A stretch of DNA of 33,525 nucleotides from a virus (lineage: Duplodnaviria; Heunggongvirae; Uroviricota; Caudoviricetes), in the IMG/VR virus record IMGVR_UViG_2703718822_000009. One strand, 5' to 3'. The notes under the pieces are model-generated. The model made no database searches and was not told the DNA's origin. It saw nothing but the letters and a program-made list of their open reading frames with translations. A program made the translations under genes and the position numbers. Shown here in pieces: positions 4,345 to 33,525 of this stretch. Numbering within the stretch: position 1 is the first letter of the stretch; each line of letters begins with the position of its first letter.

Positions 4345-4465
4345 GTGATCATCATGCACACACAAAAAAACCGCTTGCCAGCGTTCGCCTGGTCGGGTTA
4401 CAGTTTTCCCGCACCTCATAAAACGGGTGCCGGGATTGCAACCCCCGCTGACTACACAAGCGCAC

Positions 4466-4487
4466 AACCGCGCCAGCGGTTTTTTTG
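4466..4487 (+). terminator. Putative intrinsic terminator inside the early-operon gap
   Basis: Stem aaccgc / gcggtt with a 4-nt loop, followed by a T-run (4482-4487), nested in a longer cgcacaa / ttgtgcg helix. Confidence 0.45.
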
Positions 4488-4664
4488 TGCGTACCGCATC
4501 GTCACATCTTTTTCGCGTCAGAATTATGGTGGGGCGTACAGGGCCGACTTCGGTCGGGCCGGGGTCTTGTGTAGCCGGTGGTTGCAACCCTGTACGTCTC
4601 ACCACCCAGAATTGCAACCTCTGGATGGTGAGTTTTCAAAACTTACTACACAAGAGGCCACACC

Positions 4665-12223: not shown

Positions 12224-13272
12224 ATGCCGCAGCCAACGTTGATGACCGACTGGACATGCATCGCCACATCAGGGCCGACCGCTGACGGTCGCGAAATTGA
12301 TCCGCAGTGGCTGATTGATGCCGCTGAAACCTATTCCCGCAACACCTACACGGCGATGCTGTGGCCCTGCCATGAGAACGACACCAGTTACCGCCAGTAC
12401 ACCTTCAATCTGGGCGAAGTGGACGCGCTGAAAGTGGAAACCCGCGAGGACGGTAAAACCCGTCTTTACGCGCGACTGGTCCCTAATCAGTACCTGATTG
12501 AAGCCAACAGGCTGGGGCAAAAACTCTTCACATCAGCCGAATTAATACCGAACTTTGCCAAAAGCGGACGCGACTATCTCATGGGTGTGGCGGTGNNGAT
12601 ATCCCCGCCAGTCTGGGGACGGAAAAAATCCGCTTCACCCTGAACAACGAGGAATACACGGCACAGCGGGCGAACTGCCAGACGTTCACGCTGGGCAGCC
12701 TGTCACCGGACACCACCCCTGCCCCCCGTAAACCTGAGTCATTCCTGAAACGCCTGTTCAGCGCAGGACAGACCGACAACACCGATACCAGTAAGCCTGA
12801 TACAGGCGAGGACGCAAAAATGGACGAAATTAAAGCACTGCTTGAAAAGCTGATCACCCTGGTGGAAGGCGGCAGCGCCGCTGCCGCTGGCGAGGGCACA
12901 GCAGACACACCGGAAGAAGCAAAAGCCGAAGTCGCGGAAATCGCCGCCGAAATCGCCGATGCCGCCGCAGAGGTGGCAGAGCTGGCAGAAGAGGTGGAAG
13001 CCGCCCCGGAAGATGAGGTTAAGGCTGAAGCCTTCAGCGCCGCGAAAGCGAAGCTGGAAGACGCGATTAAAGCGTTCAGTGCCATCACACCGGAAAAAGG
13101 CGAACGTTACCGCCGCTTTGCCGCCCGTCGCCGGGACGACACCGACAAAGAAGAAATCAAAGCCATTGCCGAAAAACTTAACGACCTGACCACGAAGCTG
13201 TCAGCCACCGGCATCACGCCACGCCCGGCTGGCACACCGGCAGAAAGCGAAAAACCGTTTGACTTTGTTTAA
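12224..13272 (+). CDS. Capsid scaffolding protein, P2 gpO-like (apparent frameshift at an NN assembly ambiguity)
   Basis: ORF 12032..12643 from the ATG at 12224 (AAGAGG RBS) matches the gpO N-terminal region; reading continues across NN (12596-12597) in another frame as DIPASLGTEKIRF... into ORF 12820..13272 (acidic Ala/Glu-rich scaffold C-terminus). Confidence 0.8.
12596..12597. other. Ambiguous bases (NN), assembly uncertainty
   Basis: Two N characters inside the scaffold gene. Confidence 0.95.
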
Positions 13273-30699: not shown

Positions 30700-31280
30700 A
30701 TGGACGAAACGCCCCACGTAATCCCCACGTAAAACGTCGCGTAACGAAGAGATAACCCCGCCAGCCTGATTCGATCCCCTGACATCAGAAAACGATTTCT
30801 GCGCCCCAAAATCGCCGCAAATGGCCGGAAATTTTCGGGGGCGACGTAACGCGTAAAGTGACGTAATCGGCGCTACCCCGCACACGCCTCCGGTATTTGT
30901 GTACGATAAATTTTGCAAATCGAAAGGGGTGCAAAACACCCCGCCAGGGCGCGCCATTACTGAGGATTTCCCTTCTGAATGGTTTTGCACTTTGTGCAAG
31001 GTTTTGCAAAAGTGTGCAAAAACTCCGGCTTTCTGAGGATCCCGAAAAATTTTAATGCACTGAATAACAAGAGATTTTTAAAATTACGTCACGATCGAAG
31101 ATCTGAAAAAGGATCCGACGACGAAAACGAAAAAATCAGGAAAGCCAGAACTGGCGCGGCCTGGCGGGGAGTGGCAGCAAAAATCACTTTTGCACACTTT
31201 TGCACAACTGCTCCGAAAAAGGATGGCGAAGGGGAAGGAAAAACAGCCACGTCATCCGTTGCACGTAACGGACGTAAAAG
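30700..31280. repeat. Repeat-rich non-coding region: CGTAA-type repeats, DnaA-box-like 9-mers, GATC cluster
   Basis: (C/G)ACGTAA repeats in three clusters (30715-30745, 30843-30866, 31248-31280). Relaxed DnaA-box matches TTTTGCACA at 31188-31196 and 31198-31206 and an inverted set at 30982-31020. Three GATC within about 30 bp at 31090-31125 in an AT-rich stretch. Confidence 0.4.
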
Positions 31281-31440
31281 GTAAATTACGCGCGGGTGCC
31301 TTTCGGCTGACGGCTGGAAGGATTACCTGAAGGCCGGATGAGGAAAGGCCCCGAGTCAAACATTTGTTTAACCCGAGGCCCTAACCCATCTACCTCGCAA
31401 GTGGAAGGTTAGCGCCTCCCTGTAAAAGGAGTCAAGCGCT

Positions 31441-31581
31441 ATGCCGCAAAAAACGATCATAGTGAGCATTTTATGCATAACTATTTTGATGATTGTCTGG
31501 ATGATACACAAGTCACCGTGTGAGTTCAGGCTTAACATCATGTGGTCAGAATTTGCGGCGTTCTTGCAGTGTAAACAGTAA
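31441..31581 (+). CDS. Hok/Gef-family type I toxin (46 aa)
   Basis: Hand translation MPQKTIIVSILCITILMIVWMIHKSPCEFRLNIMWSEFAAFLQCKQ: TM helix then K-S-x-C-E-x-R and E-x-A-A-F, as in Hok/Gef proteins; AAGGAG RBS. Confidence 0.8.
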   Translation: MPQKTIIVSILCITILMIVWMIHKSPCEFRLNIMWSEFAAFLQCKQ

Positions 31582-31671
31582 GAAACCGCAGCGGGGGTGA
31601 AAGCCCCCGCTATCCGGTTGCCGGGTTCGGTCGATATGGCACCCTTTCTCCGTTGGATTACAGACGTATTT

Positions 31672-31697
31672 GCCCGCGACATGCGGGCCTTTTTGTT
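31672..31697 (+). terminator. Intrinsic terminator of hok-like locus 1
   Basis: gcccgc / gcgggc stem with a 5-nt loop, followed by CTTTTTGTT. Confidence 0.6.
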
Positions 31698-31900
31698 CAG
31701 TTGTATTTATTGTGGTCGTTACTGGCAGTGGTATTAACTGATTTTGCATGAATAGCACAAATTTTTTCCACGATAACACCACACGCTTCAAGATCTTCCG
31801 GGCGTGAAACCTTTATTTTTGTAATAGTCTCAGGATTATCAGCCGTTCCACTTTGCACAACCTCAATTTCAATTTTTTTTCTTGAAAGAATCATTTTCAT
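31697..31900 (-). CDS. Hypothetical small protein between the two hok-like loci
   Basis: 67-aa ORF (MKMILSRKKIEIEVVQSG...), weak RBS, AT-rich; may be a remnant. Confidence 0.25.
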   Translation of the reverse strand: MKMILSRKKIEIEVVQSGTADNPETITKIKVSRPEDLEACGVIVEKICAIHAKSVNTTASNDHNKYN

Positions 31901-32003
31901 CGCCCCGACACAGGACAGAGTAAGCCTGTGCGAAAGAATATCACCAGTGCGATAGCGTTGTCTGCTTCAACGCCAGGCATTGCACACACAAAGGGAAATC
32001 AGT

Positions 32004-32340
32004 ACATTACACGCGGGTGCCTTTCGGCTGATGGCTGGAAGGATTACCTGAAGGCCGGATGTGGAAAGGCCCCGAGTCAACTTTAATGTTAACCCGAGGC
32101 CCTAACACTTCCTACCGTGACAAGTGGAAGGTTAGCGCCTCCCTGTANNNNNNNNNNNNNNNNNNNNNNNNNNNNNNNNNNNNNNNNNNNNNNNNNNNNN
32201 NNNNNNNNNNNNNNNNNNNNNNNNNNNNNNNNNNNNNNNNNNNNNNNNNNNNNNNNNNNNNNNNGGTCGATATGGCACCCTTTCTCCGTTGAATTACATA
32301 GACATTTGCCCGCGATATGCGGGCTATATTTTTATTTTTT
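32004..32340 (+). other. hok/sok-like locus, copy 2 (interior replaced by an N-run)
   Basis: 5' arm 32004-32147 and 3' arm 32265-32340 are closely similar to copy 1 (same GGGTGCC / GGCACCC pair and the same gcccgc...gcgggc terminator at 32308-32324); the toxin ORF region is masked by N. Confidence 0.55.
32148..32264. other. Run of N (assembly gap or masked sequence)
   Basis: 117 consecutive N characters inside hok-like copy 2. Confidence 0.95.
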
Positions 32341-33525
32341 GAATAGGTTAATAAATTCAGGTTTTTTCTTATCTCCTGCTTCCCTTCGTTTAACCCAACA
32401 ACACCCTGACTGAAGTAAACAGACAAATTCATCCTGCTTCAGCTCTAAGGTGTCTTTAAGTTTTAATTGTTTTTTCGCAGCATCAGGAACAAAAACATCA
32501 ACAATAATCTTTCCGGGGTCATACAGTTGAGTTTCAATCAGCACAGGTAATTTATGGACAGGTCTGGGTTCCATACGAGAAAAAGAAAACTCACCATCCA
32601 TCACACCATCAAAAGTACTTACAGAATCGTAACCAGAAAAGCACTCATATTTCACCTGAAGAACAACAGCATCATCAAGCTTTAAAAAATCGCAATAAGA
32701 ATCATACGCTAGGCGATCACTATAAAAAACATCACCGCGATTAAACTGAAAGGAATCCCCTTGCGTCCAAATTTCATAATTAAAAAACTCTGTTTTTACT
32801 GGGGTAAGTTTTATATCCAAAGAATCCTTGTAACACTCTTTTACAGCAAAGCGCCAACCAGCTGCGTAACCATCAACAAATACCGCAATCAACGCATTAC
32901 TACGGCGAAACTCCCTTACAGTACGGATAGAAAGCGAGAACTCATCTATCATACTCTTGTAAGTGTTAACATCCTTCTCAAGCGATTTACTGATATCATT
33001 CTCAACCACGCAGTCTTGCTCAAGAGGAATTTCACCAGTATCAATAAAATTGATAAATTGTTCTTCTGTCAGAATAATTACGCCATAATCGCTGGCTTTC
33101 TGAACTTTCCGCCACCCTTTGTTCTTTCCTACACAAAGGAAAAACAAACTTTTTCCAACATCAGACTTAACATCAATACCATTTTCTTTTGCAAAAGCGC
33201 TTAAGCGAGATTTATCAGACTGGTCAAATCCGGTAAAACAAATTGAAATTGAATTCTTTTTGGGTGAAGATTTTCGGGGGGGGGCAATATACTGACTGAA
33301 ATCAGTTTCAGACGCAACCTTATTCAACTCCTGGTCGCTAGAAAACATCTGAATAACACGGTCTTTCAAAAAGGTACGAAATGCGCGACGAGTTAAAGAG
33401 TATCCTTGTAAATAATCCCCTTTTTCAGCCACCTTTATCACGCATTGAGCCGACAACTCCCCTCTACCGTTAACATACAGAAAAAACGCCTCTTTATTTT
33501 CGTTTATCATTTCCCTATCAAACAT
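32332..33525 (-). CDS. BRCT-domain protein with uncharacterised C-terminal domain (start at window edge; may be 5'-truncated)
   Basis: 397-aa ORF in a visibly AT-rich segment. Residues about 95-165 (ISICFTGFDQSDKSRLSAFAKENGIDVKSDVGKSLFFLCVGKNKGWRKVQKASDYGVIILTEEQFINFI) resemble the LigA BRCT domain (pattern-level); the C-terminal ~230 aa has no recognisable motif. Confidence 0.65.
   Translation of the reverse strand: MFDREMINENKEAFFLYVNGRGELSAQCVIKVAEKGDYLQGYSLTRRAFRTFLKDRVIQMFSSDQELNKVASETDFSQYIAPPRKSSPKKNSISICFTGFDQSDKSRLSAFAKENGIDVKSDVGKSLFFLCVGKNKGWRKVQKASDYGVIILTEEQFINFIDTGEIPLEQDCVVENDISKSLEKDVNTYKSMIDEFSLSIRTVREFRRSNALIAVFVDGYAAGWRFAVKECYKDSLDIKLTPVKTEFFNYEIWTQGDSFQFNRGDVFYSDRLAYDSYCDFLKLDDAVVLQVKYECFSGYDSVSTFDGVMDGEFSFSRMEPRPVHKLPVLIETQLYDPGKIIVDVFVPDAAKKQLKLKDTLELKQDEFVCLLQSGCCWVKRREAGDKKKPEFINLFKK

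Follow-up and report, generated by a model that had tools for sequence, protein, structure and literature searches.

Two tandem hok/sok-type toxin-antitoxin cassettes as probable accessory cargo near the attR end of a P2/HP1-family Escherichia coli prophage

Towards the end of the stretch of viral DNA analyzed here (the window, 33,525 nucleotides), two very similar loci follow each other on the plus strand, the second of them interrupted by a run of N. What are these loci, what could they do for their carrier, and does the second one still encode a toxin? They had been described in the first-pass annotation as tandem hok/sok-like loci at a prophage boundary, and the pair, the N-run and the proximity to a prophage end are all there, although the pair does not sit at the very end, as a gene for a BRCT-domain protein comes before attR. 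In our reading, they are very probably a tandem duplication of a hok/sok-type type I toxin-antitoxin cassette, forming accessory cargo near the attR end of an E. coli prophage of the P2/HP1 family. Copy 1 is a complete hok-type locus (about 31259-31696, plus strand) with the following basic elements.

31259-31287, plus strand: promoter of hok copy 1, read from the sequence (-35 TTGCAC, 17-nt spacer, -10 TAAATT)
31294-31696, plus strand: hok copy 1 mRNA, about 403 nt, with inferred ends
31441-31581, plus strand: hok copy 1 ORF, 46 aa, MPQKTIIVSILCITILMIVWMIHKSPCEFRLNIMWSEFAAFLQCKQ
31672-31696, plus strand: intrinsic terminator of copy 1, a hairpin (31672-31688) followed by a T-run

The ORF had been proposed as an intact Hok/Gef-like gene, and the profile searches agree, with 31 bits against Pfam HOK_GEF (PF01848; gathering score of 22, E = 1.9e-7, residues 9-44) and E = 3.3e-20 against PHROG 251. 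The closest NCBIfam models are HokA and the Hok family. HokA (hokA/sokA of E. coli) is the best-scoring named family, with a shared MPQK N-terminus and both cysteines hard-coded, but the peptide is not a HokA equivalog, because it scores only 39.5 bits against the HokA model (NF007290, E = 4e-10; 37.4 bits for the stand-in used for copy 2) where the cut-off is 89. The two also fall into different clusters of a recent catalogue of Hok homologues, HokA in cluster 93 and the window subfamily in cluster 82 (Escalera-Maurer et al., bioRxiv 10.1101/2025.08.07.668861). The hydrophobic stretch IIVSILCITILMIVWMI, Cys27 and Cys44 were invariant in the eight closest relatives aligned, and the 17 residues between these cysteines equal the spacing of Cys29 and Cys46 in HokB, for which a disulfide has been described (bioRxiv 10.1101/2025.08.07.668861). 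Among 19 relatives the Hok ORF was intact in every one, with pN/pS values of 0.26-0.48. A member of cluster 82, 82_1289, which is 70-78% identical to the window peptides and belongs to the same 60%-identity cluster, was among 45 Hok homologues tested; 42 of these were toxic, and 82_1289 does not belong to the three that were not (bioRxiv 10.1101/2025.08.07.668861).

A generic promoter scan of 31150-32400 returned no promoter at threshold for either hok or sok, so that the promoter calls given here rest on position and conservation. Of the 15 distinct upstream contexts listed, 13 have the motif TTGCnn-17-TAnATT at a constant distance of 6 nt from GGGTGCC, on its upstream side. The Rfam model "sok" (RF01794) aligns with its position 1 at 31294 and matches on the hok-sense strand, from +1 of the leader as far as the start codon, with 46.0 bits for copy 1 (E = 1.6e-8) and 32.4 bits for the copy 2 leader cut by the N-run (E = 6.4e-5), both below the gathering score of 59. 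Three elements of the mRNA appeared in the folding analysis.

31294-31310, plus strand: 5' fold-back element (tac-like), GGGUGCC..UCGGCUGA, pairing with 31627-31644 in the full-length fold
31411-31440, plus strand: hairpin in which AGCGCCUCC pairs with GGAG..GCGCU in the minimum-energy fold, sequestering the hok Shine-Dalgarno sequence AAGGAG (31426-31431)
31627-31644, plus strand: 3' fold-back element (fbi-like), UCGGUCGA..GGCACCC, in the minimum-energy fold

The complementarity of the two ends and the terminator noticed at first reading were both recovered. Folded at full length, the copy 1 mRNA reaches -167 kcal/mol (z = -8.5, equaled by none of 100 shuffles) with its ends paired, GGGUGCC (31294-31300) to GGCACCC (31638-31644) and 31303-31310 to 31627-31634. 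We then compared this structure across the 19 relatives, in an RNA alignment whose outgroups were six distant loci (46-53% amino acid identity) obtained by a profile search of genome contigs with the Hok alignment. In the consensus structure, 98.7% of cells were paired and 13 pairs showed compensatory changes, a number reached by only 2 of 500 shuffles, and it scored far higher than versions in which the partners had been slid. The helices of the Shine-Dalgarno hairpin (consensus helices 7 and 8) were 98-99% paired. Those of the fold-back (helices 1 and 2) were 97-100% paired with a single compensatory change, the 5' element itself being invariant, so that their support comes from conservation and not from covariation. 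When the 3' end was truncated in silico, the 5' element re-paired with GAAAGGCCCC at 31343-31352 and the Shine-Dalgarno hairpin was lost. These computations suggest that the long hok mRNA is locked by pairing of its 5' and 3' ends, with the hok Shine-Dalgarno sequestered.

Between the 5' element and hok lie a short leader frame and, on the opposite strand, a candidate antisense gene.

31338-31412, plus strand: leader ORF, a truncated mok frame of 24 codons with its TAG stop at 31410-31412
31344-31398, minus strand: putative Sok1 antisense RNA of about 55 nt, inferred from the promoter position (16-nt free 5' tail, 17-bp hairpin, UUU end)
31406-31435, minus strand: putative sok1 promoter (-35 TTGACT, 31435-31430; 18-nt spacer; -10 TAACCT, 31411-31406)

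No mok frame overlapping hok is present in the window. The leader stop is at the base of the hairpin in which the hok ribosome-binding site is buried, 28 nt upstream of the hok AUG, and in the copy 2 stand-in the frame stops after 29 codons. In both copies (copy 2 by way of the stand-in), the end of the leader falls at the 5' arm of the Shine-Dalgarno hairpin, within it or just past it; a ribosome terminating there could melt the hairpin, so that translational coupling could still work. A frame that starts at the same AUG and overlaps hok is confined to E. albertii (79 codons) and a pKPC plasmid copy (61 codons), while in the remaining copies of the alignment the frame has 1, 6, 8, 15, 19, 24, 25, 29 or 40 codons. 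That mok is cut at such widely differing points in E. coli prophage copies could be a sign of decay, either of the regulation or of the loci as a whole.

A Sok-like promoter on the minus strand had been suggested for the region around 31380-31440, and the putative sok1 promoter is a good candidate for it. In all 19 relatives, TTG(A)C and TAACCT are unchanged; the -10 is weak (3 of 6 positions). The promoter is placed like that of sok in plasmid R1, whose -35 also abuts the complement of the hok Shine-Dalgarno. The predicted Sok1 RNA folds at -26.7 kcal/mol, and a longer stretch gives z = -5.7. At its presumed end a generic scan found no canonical terminator, only the UUU tail.

From these elements, a mechanism can be proposed for each cassette. 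The weak, conserved promoter would produce a hok mRNA of about 400 nt, in which the 5' end pairs with the 3' element, the Shine-Dalgarno is held in its local hairpin and the AUG is paired with a downstream box, pairings that come from folding and conservation and would leave the full-length RNA translationally inert. Slow trimming at the 3' end would remove the 3' element, upon which the 5' end could switch to its alternative partner, located shortly after the leader AUG, the Shine-Dalgarno hairpin would dissolve and a target hairpin would form, as suggested by the fold of the truncated RNA and by analogy with R1 hok. Sok, about 55 nt long and transcribed from the conserved minus-strand promoter overlapping the hok Shine-Dalgarno region, would pair with codons 2-20 of the leader ORF and block leader translation and, with it, that of hok. 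If the supply of Sok stopped, the stable mRNA would be translated and the 46-aa Hok would enter the inner membrane, leading to killing or lysis.

The carrier is a P2/HP1-family (Peduovirinae-like) prophage of Escherichia coli with the gene set and order of the P2 type. A near-identical prophage in L003 carries annotations for integrase, Cox, replication endonuclease, Ogr, portal, terminase, GPO scaffold and a P2-family capsid, and in the window itself Pfam and PHROG recognized a tail fiber, an HP1 ORF34 protein and baseplate proteins. The hok pair lies 3' of the last baseplate gene and is followed by the cargo gene already mentioned, while a small ORF occupies the spacer between the copies.

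31697-31900, minus strand: 67-aa spacer ORF, matching only the C-terminal part of the phrog_14142 profile (E = 1.4e-6)
32332-33525, minus strand: BRCT-domain cargo gene, between copy 2 and attR

The 67-aa ORF is probably a gene remnant. It is a hypothetical protein in RefSeq relatives, and in one relative (L004) no gene is annotated for it and the two hok genes are much closer to each other. As for the attachment sites, an imperfect att-like repeat, GCCACC(C/G)GAAGGTGGC, was found at both prophage ends in strain Z1323MEC0001, beyond the BRCT gene, and is a putative att core. In a relative integrated at serS, an exact-repeat search for att sites gave no repeat of at least 11 nt, and in one integrated at ytfP the att search gave only an imperfect repeat. 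Three upstream genes labeled as hypothetical encode baseplate and tail proteins according to Pfam and PHROG and do not form a defense system; no PADLOC model matched these upstream genes, Hok or the 67-aa ORF.

The pair had also been thought to be plasmid derived, a claim that did not survive the search of E. coli genomes. All but one of the 1,164 matching places were chromosomal, and the few plasmid copies inspected had a phage-like context, next to the phage-type genes lom or ogr.

What the cassettes do for the prophage is the least certain part of our reading. Most likely, they would kill the cell upon loss of prophage transcription, which would amount to prophage retention or, where a newly arriving phage turns off transcription in the host, to abortive infection. 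A serious, though less likely, alternative is that they aid the lytic cycle of the prophage itself and have no part in addiction or antiphage activity, in that Sok would be gone at induction and Hok would damage the inner membrane, releasing progeny earlier or in greater number. Such help in phage release has been demonstrated for the prophage-borne hokW-sokW of Sakai prophage 5, in contrast to the addiction or exclusion role proposed here at first (PMC8621323). Both hok loci of the window are co-oriented with the late tail and baseplate genes and directly downstream of them, and a survey found hok enriched in prophages and no enrichment near defense systems (bioRxiv 10.1101/2025.08.07.668861), all of which would fit an aid to lysis. 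However, hokW belongs to a different hok lineage (51 aa, MKQQKAM...), the prophage already encodes its own holin and endolysin, and no sequence feature discriminates among the possible roles.

Less probable still, and in our opinion rather doubtful, is that the loci are true hok/sok descendants that have become silent relics, the loss of the mok frame having uncoupled hok from translation. Pedersen and Gerdes (1999) reportedly assigned such a status to several of the hok loci on the E. coli K-12 chromosome. The variable leader frame described above, which is intact and reaches into hok in E. albertii and a single plasmid copy only, could be read in this way, and chromosomal hokA, hokB and hokC are unable to mediate postsegregational killing (bioRxiv 10.1101/2025.08.07.668861, introduction). 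Against this stand the Hok ORFs, all of them intact and with pN/pS well under 1, and the promoters, fold-back elements and Shine-Dalgarno hairpin, which are invariant or compensated, as well as the position of the leader stop in both window copies, from which a ribosome could still open the hairpin.

The remaining question is whether the second cassette is complete. It begins 721 nt downstream of copy 1 and has the same promoter and, as first reported, both arms around a center of N.

31980-32008, plus strand: promoter of hok copy 2 (-35 TTGCAC, 17-nt spacer, -10 TACATT)
32015-32147, plus strand: 5' arm of the copy 2 mRNA, with the fold-back element and the leader ORF start at 32059
32065-32121, minus strand: putative Sok2, with its target in the 5' arm and a putative sok2 -10 at 32134-32129
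32148-32264: N-run of 117 N, an assembly gap where copies 1 and 2 are near-identical
32265-32335, plus strand: 3' arm of copy 2, with an fbi-like GGCACCC (32274-32280) and a terminator (32308-32324, then a T-run)

The arms are nearly identical to those of copy 1 over about 150 and about 70 nt, a similarity far beyond chance, and the gap covers the putative sok2 -35, the hok2 Shine-Dalgarno and the hok2 ORF. On either side of the N-run, exactly 27 nt are identical to copy 1, and such symmetric flanks point to a k-mer assembly break at a repeat. The N-run is thus, judging from its flanks, an assembly gap caused by the hok duplication itself (repeat collapse). There is a second, tiny gap in the window (NN at 12596-12597), which marks the assembly as a draft scaffold. 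Two finished E. coli genomes, L005 and L004, have 204 nt at the place of the gap, with an intact 46-aa hok. Both share the 3' arm and the downstream junction of the window, and L005 also the 5' arm except for one base. Since copy 1 likewise has 204 nt there, 117 is not a true length. Copy 2 probably holds an intact 46-aa hok as well, with MPQKTIIVSILCLTMLLTVWMIHRSPCEFRLNIMWSEFAAFLQCKQ as the expected peptide, and the full-length fold of its stand-in (z = -6.8) is closed by the same type of 5'/3' helix. In practical terms, anyone cloning or deleting this end of the prophage should expect, on this prediction, two small toxic ORFs.

Were the N-run instead a mask of true length, copy 2 would be 87 nt shorter than its relatives (117 N versus 204 nt), with hok deleted and nonfunctional. 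One collection does contain N-masked stretches, and another hok locus (L009) has N-runs too, but we consider this quite improbable, as the flanks carry the signature of a k-mer break at a repeat, the NN indicates a draft scaffold and all relatives with these flanks have the full 204 nt. That copy 2 is a misjoined duplicate of copy 1, as might be suspected in a draft assembly with gaps within a repeat, can practically be dismissed, given that its arms have their own substitutions and a 2-nt indel and that closed genomes show these copies, two or three of them, in an unchanged order.

Almost all noncoding divergence between the two copies falls in the predicted target of the Sok 5' tail and in the loop of the Sok hairpin, and each Sok would therefore mainly recognize its own hok mRNA. 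We tentatively propose, as a model more likely to be wrong than right, that the tandem cassettes are functionally insulated in this way and that in this prophage subfamily a minimal leader ORF has replaced the overlapping mok, giving a simpler coupling than in R1. If so, prophage hok arrays would be orthogonal kill switches and not redundant copies. Tandemly repeated type I toxin-antitoxin loci whose copies differ in the antisense recognition regions, which would limit cross talk, are known in E. coli from Ibs/Sib and Ldr/Rdl. As in these systems, duplicated toxin/antisense cassettes are adjacent to each other here, with copy discrimination only predicted in our case; unlike here, their toxins belong to unrelated families and they have no fold-back mRNA mechanism.

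With hok/sok (parB) of plasmid R1, the window cassettes share a small Hok/Gef peptide, an mRNA of about 400 nt with 5'/3' pairing, a sequestered hok Shine-Dalgarno and a putative short antisense RNA directed against a leader ORF, with an unpaired 5' tail, a hairpin at its end and a promoter whose -35 is next to the Shine-Dalgarno complement. They differ in a distantly related peptide (46 versus 52 aa), in an Rfam score under the threshold, in a mok frame that is essential in R1 and here truncated and not overlapping hok, and in their tandem arrangement in a prophage, R1 hok/sok being on a plasmid. For this comparison, the R1 features were taken from PMC8621323 and bioRxiv 10.1101/2025.08.07.668861. 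With its naturally truncated mok frames and diverged Sok targets, this subfamily offers variants for testing to what extent the R1 scheme is needed.

Annotations of these loci already exist in finished E. coli genomes, where an identical pair has both hok genes intact, and both peptides are public as "Hok/Gef family protein," the exact copy 1 peptide on 903 contigs. The finding is for this reason correct but ordinary, and its significance is mainly one of annotation, for a textbook toxin-antitoxin class labeled as such in RefSeq. Near-identical peptides, such as MPQKTIIVSILCITILMIVWMIHNSPCEFRLNIMWSQFAAFLQCKQ, are cataloged in cluster 82 by Escalera-Maurer et al., and islets of two to six duplicated hok genes, which account for 13.5% of chromosomal hok in Escherichia, have been surveyed together with the prophage enrichment, which is four-fold, and with the 3.5% of hok-carrying phages that have two copies (bioRxiv 10.1101/2025.08.07.668861). 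By design, that preprint does not deal with Mok, Sok or mRNA structure, and the truncated leader frame and copy-specific Sok targets lie outside its coverage. Matches to Stx phages had suggested hokW-sokW of Sakai prophage 5 (Sp5) as a characterized counterpart, which was rejected when the published primers showed hokW to be another locus (MKQQKAM..., 51 aa). The Stx-phage counterpart is an unstudied hok next to lom, with about 80% nucleotide identity.

The first-pass annotation proposed two tandem hok/sok-like loci, the first with an intact 46-aa Hok/Gef-like ORF and the second with both arms around a centre of N, and our analysis bore this out. The second copy begins ca. 720 nt downstream, where the sequence on either side of the hok1 ORF is repeated. 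In the alignment of both copies, the 5' arms (31294-31424 versus 32015-32147) and the 3' arms (31629-31695 versus 32265-32335) are near identical.

31441-31581, plus strand: hok copy 1 ORF, 46 codons, product MPQKTIIVSILCITILMIVWMIHKSPCEFRLNIMWSEFAAFLQCKQ (from the ORF listing of 30800-33525)
32148-32264, no strand: run of 117 N in the centre of copy 2 (read from the sequence)

The copy 1 peptide passes the Pfam HOK_GEF model (31 bits, gathering score 22) and matches PHROG 251, "MokW-like host killing" (E = 3e-20), which upholds Hok/Gef against assignment to another family. Since its scores fall below the cut-offs for both HokA, the top NCBIfam match (39.5 bits, cut-off 89), and the NCBIfam Hok family (30.4 bits, cut-off 73), it is by these profiles a Hok/Gef member closest to HokA, yet not HokA itself. 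Cys27 and Cys44 are present, with the same spacing as Cys29-Cys46 of HokB, for which a disulfide has been reported (bioRxiv 10.1101/2025.08.07.668861). The identical peptide is found on 903 public contigs as "Hok/Gef family protein [Escherichia coli]".

On both sides of the N-run, the sequence stays identical to copy 1 for exactly 27 nt, up to the first copy-specific base. Symmetric identical flanks of this kind are the trace of a k-mer assembler at a collapsed repeat, and because of this symmetry we take the N-run for a scaffolding gap whose length is an estimate rather than for a real 117-nt segment. Two finished genomes, E. coli Z1323MEC0001 and E. coli O22:H8 strain 154, share the hok1-hok2-BRCT architecture, and both have 204 nt with an intact 46-aa Hok in place of the N-run; that copy 2 is truly shortened in this genome seems quite improbable. 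At ytfP, Z1323MEC0001 carries hok1, a small minus-strand ORF, hok2, the BRCT gene and ytfP, and its gap flanks equal those of the window bar one base. Strain 154 has the same 3' arm and BRCT junction and a different 5' arm. The 46-aa peptide of the hok2 from the finished relative, our stand-in for copy 2, is public on 242 contigs. Apart from the gap, N occurs in the window only at 12596-12597, two nucleotides inside a coding region, which is a further sign of a draft scaffold, or else of a consensus containing ambiguous positions. Z1323MEC0001 also harbours this prophage twice, as near-identical copies at dmsA/serS (locus L003) and ppa/ytfP (loci L005/L018), each with a tandem hok pair whose last copy differs in its 3' end; the BRCT gene is present only in the ytfP prophage and absent from the dmsA-serS one. 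Where a strain has twin prophages like these, collapsed or ambiguous positions in its draft assembly could also stem from them.

The proposed 5'/3' fold-back complementarity was recovered when the putative copy 1 mRNA (31294-31696) was folded (-167 kcal/mol, z = -8.5), and candidate antisense elements could be placed on the opposite strand.

31294-31300 with 31638-31644, plus strand: predicted 5'/3' helix, GGGUGCC with GGCACCC
31303-31310 with 31627-31634, plus strand: predicted second 5'/3' helix
31411-31440, plus strand: predicted hairpin burying the hok Shine-Dalgarno (31426-31431)
31441-31450 with 31552-31561, plus strand: predicted pairing of the AUG region
31435-31430 and 31411-31406, minus strand: putative sok1 promoter, TTGACT, 18 nt, TAACCT (read from the sequence)
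31398 down to 31344, minus strand: predicted Sok1, 55 nt, with a 16-nt free 5' tail, a 17-bp hairpin and a UUU end

The Rfam RF01794 "sok" model, which spans the leader of hok between +1 and its start codon, matches both copies on the plus strand under its gathering score (E = 1.6e-8 and 6.4e-5). For comparison, we built an alignment of 19 different homologous loci, drawn from Salmonella, E. albertii, finished E. coli genomes, Stx phages and prophage pieces on plasmids. Their consensus structure has 98.7% of cells paired, far outscores versions with slid partners and includes 13 pairs with compensatory changes, a count reached in 2 of 500 shuffles. The predicted fold-back helices are nearly invariant; their support comes from this strict conservation plus a single compensatory pair rather than from covariation. 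When the 3' element was removed in silico, the 5' end paired instead with GAAAGGCCCC, directly past the leader AUG, and the strong Shine-Dalgarno hairpin dissolved; refolding of the same kind is known for R1 hok mRNA, the match here being in silico.

A generic promoter scan made no call at its threshold. In both copies, a TTGCnn-17-TAnATT pair precedes GGGTGCC by exactly 6 nt; it recurs, despite differing surroundings, in 13 of 15 distinct upstream contexts (window and relatives). In the minus-strand interval near 31380-31440, where a Sok-like promoter had been suggested, the candidate is TTGACT-18-TAACCT, whose TTG(A)C and TAACCT are unchanged in all 19 relatives. Its -35 element lies right beside the sequence complementary to the hok Shine-Dalgarno, as in the R1 sok promoter. 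When copy 1 is compared with the copy 2 stand-in, substitutions cluster at the predicted Sok hairpin loop, the target of the Sok 5' tail and transmembrane-helix codons; there is almost no difference in the fold-back elements, the Shine-Dalgarno hairpin or the final 120 nt. Predicted duplexes of the 22-nt Sok tails are stronger with the cognate leader (about -49 and -44 kcal/mol) than with that of the other copy (-27.5 and -18 kcal/mol), which hints at partly insulated antitoxins.

In R1, mok overlaps hok, as it does in E. albertii and one plasmid copy (frames of 79 and 61 codons). This defining feature is absent from the window, since the frame, which opens at a conserved AUG with AAGG upstream (31338 in copy 1), ends after 24 codons in copy 1, at a TAG (31410-31412) forming the first bases of the Shine-Dalgarno hairpin, and after 29 codons in the stand-in, leaving 15 nt to the hok AUG; the corresponding stop codon in the window's copy 2 is split by the N-run. 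Ribosomes that finish translation at the base of this hairpin could nevertheless melt it. The scattered stop positions (in other E. coli prophage copies the frame ends after anywhere from 1 to 40 codons) also fit decay of the regulation, although the intact Hok ORFs in 19 of 19 loci and a Hok pN/pS of 0.26-0.48 argue against decay of the whole loci.

The window runs from the integrase gene stop codon to the BRCT gene start codon, and the annotation of a near-identical prophage in Z1323MEC0001 lists a P2-type gene set. The three genes labelled "hypothetical" that precede hok encode tail/baseplate proteins (HP1 ORF34, phrog_2258).

32332-33525, minus strand: BRCT-domain protein, 397 aa, phage family phrog_36782

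An imperfect repeat, GCCACC(C/G)GAAGGTGGC, lies beside the integrase and beyond the BRCT gene. The earlier placement at the prophage boundary thus holds for proximity to the end but not for an outermost position: because the BRCT gene and then the repeat follow, the hok pair is, on this reading of the repeat, cargo ca. 1.4 kb inside attR. The suggested plasmid-derived origin is unsupported, as the matches, present in 939 of 5426 complete E. coli genomes, are almost all chromosomal. Members of this hok subfamily also occur, singly or as two or three copies, directly after ogr at the right-hand end of other P2-like prophages; in Stx phages they adjoin lom.

Tandem hok/sok loci like these are already known. 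Cluster 82 in the 2025-26 preprint by Escalera-Maurer et al. contains near-identical peptides, and its toxicity-tested member 82_1289 is 70-78% identical by our own count; the only non-toxic members of the tested set were three unrelated sequences (bioRxiv 10.1101/2025.08.07.668861). The same preprint describes "islets" of between 2 and 6 duplicated hok genes, which make up 13.5% of the chromosomal hok complement in Escherichia and in 98% of cases hold a single cluster, and finds hok four-fold enriched in prophages and not enriched near defence systems; Mok, Sok and mRNA structure are explicitly outside its analysis. The sole prophage hok/sok with a functional study, hokW-sokW of Sp5, aids phage release (PMC8621323) and is of a different lineage. 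Candidate roles for the pair are prophage retention or exclusion, lysis assistance, or decay.

In E. coli 2013C-3033, the same prophage end holds three hok cassettes in a row (locus L002, 4001-5710). Since the third is of the MSQKSL... subtype (54% identical to the copy 1 peptide; included in cluster 72 of the preprint, bioRxiv 10.1101/2025.08.07.668861), arrays here can mix subtypes, in contrast to the 98% of islets with a single cluster in that survey. An enterobacterial-type hok locus on L009 (1889-1950 and 2072-2153), a contig of a "Planococcaceae" metagenome-assembled genome, likely got there by contamination or mis-binning; N-runs cover its promoter and 5' end as well. The BRCT gene, the last cargo gene before attR, is present in only two of the 5426 complete E. 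coli genomes, in each case directly after hok copy 2; its product weakly resembles the PADLOC candidate PDC-S48 via the BRCT domain and could be an uncharacterised accessory or defence protein. A 67-aa ORF in the hok1-hok2 spacer (31697-31900, minus strand) is probably a gene remnant, because it matches the C-terminal part alone of phrog_14142; in the O22:H8 relative the hok genes are much closer together, with no spacer gene annotated. Directly upstream of copy 1 (30920-31210) are long inverted repeats of TTTTGCA(C/A)A motifs (30936-30962 with 31146-31172; 31001-31021 with 31188-31208, 95% complementary), overlapped by a 101-aa ORF (30979-31284) that relatives annotate as "hypothetical" and that found no match in family profile searches. 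The early region of this P2-family prophage contains, by above-threshold Rfam matches to isrK (4411-4486, plus strand, 59.6 bits) and C4 antisense RNA (4522-4609, plus strand, 78 bits), a P1/P7-type C4 immunity RNA pair.
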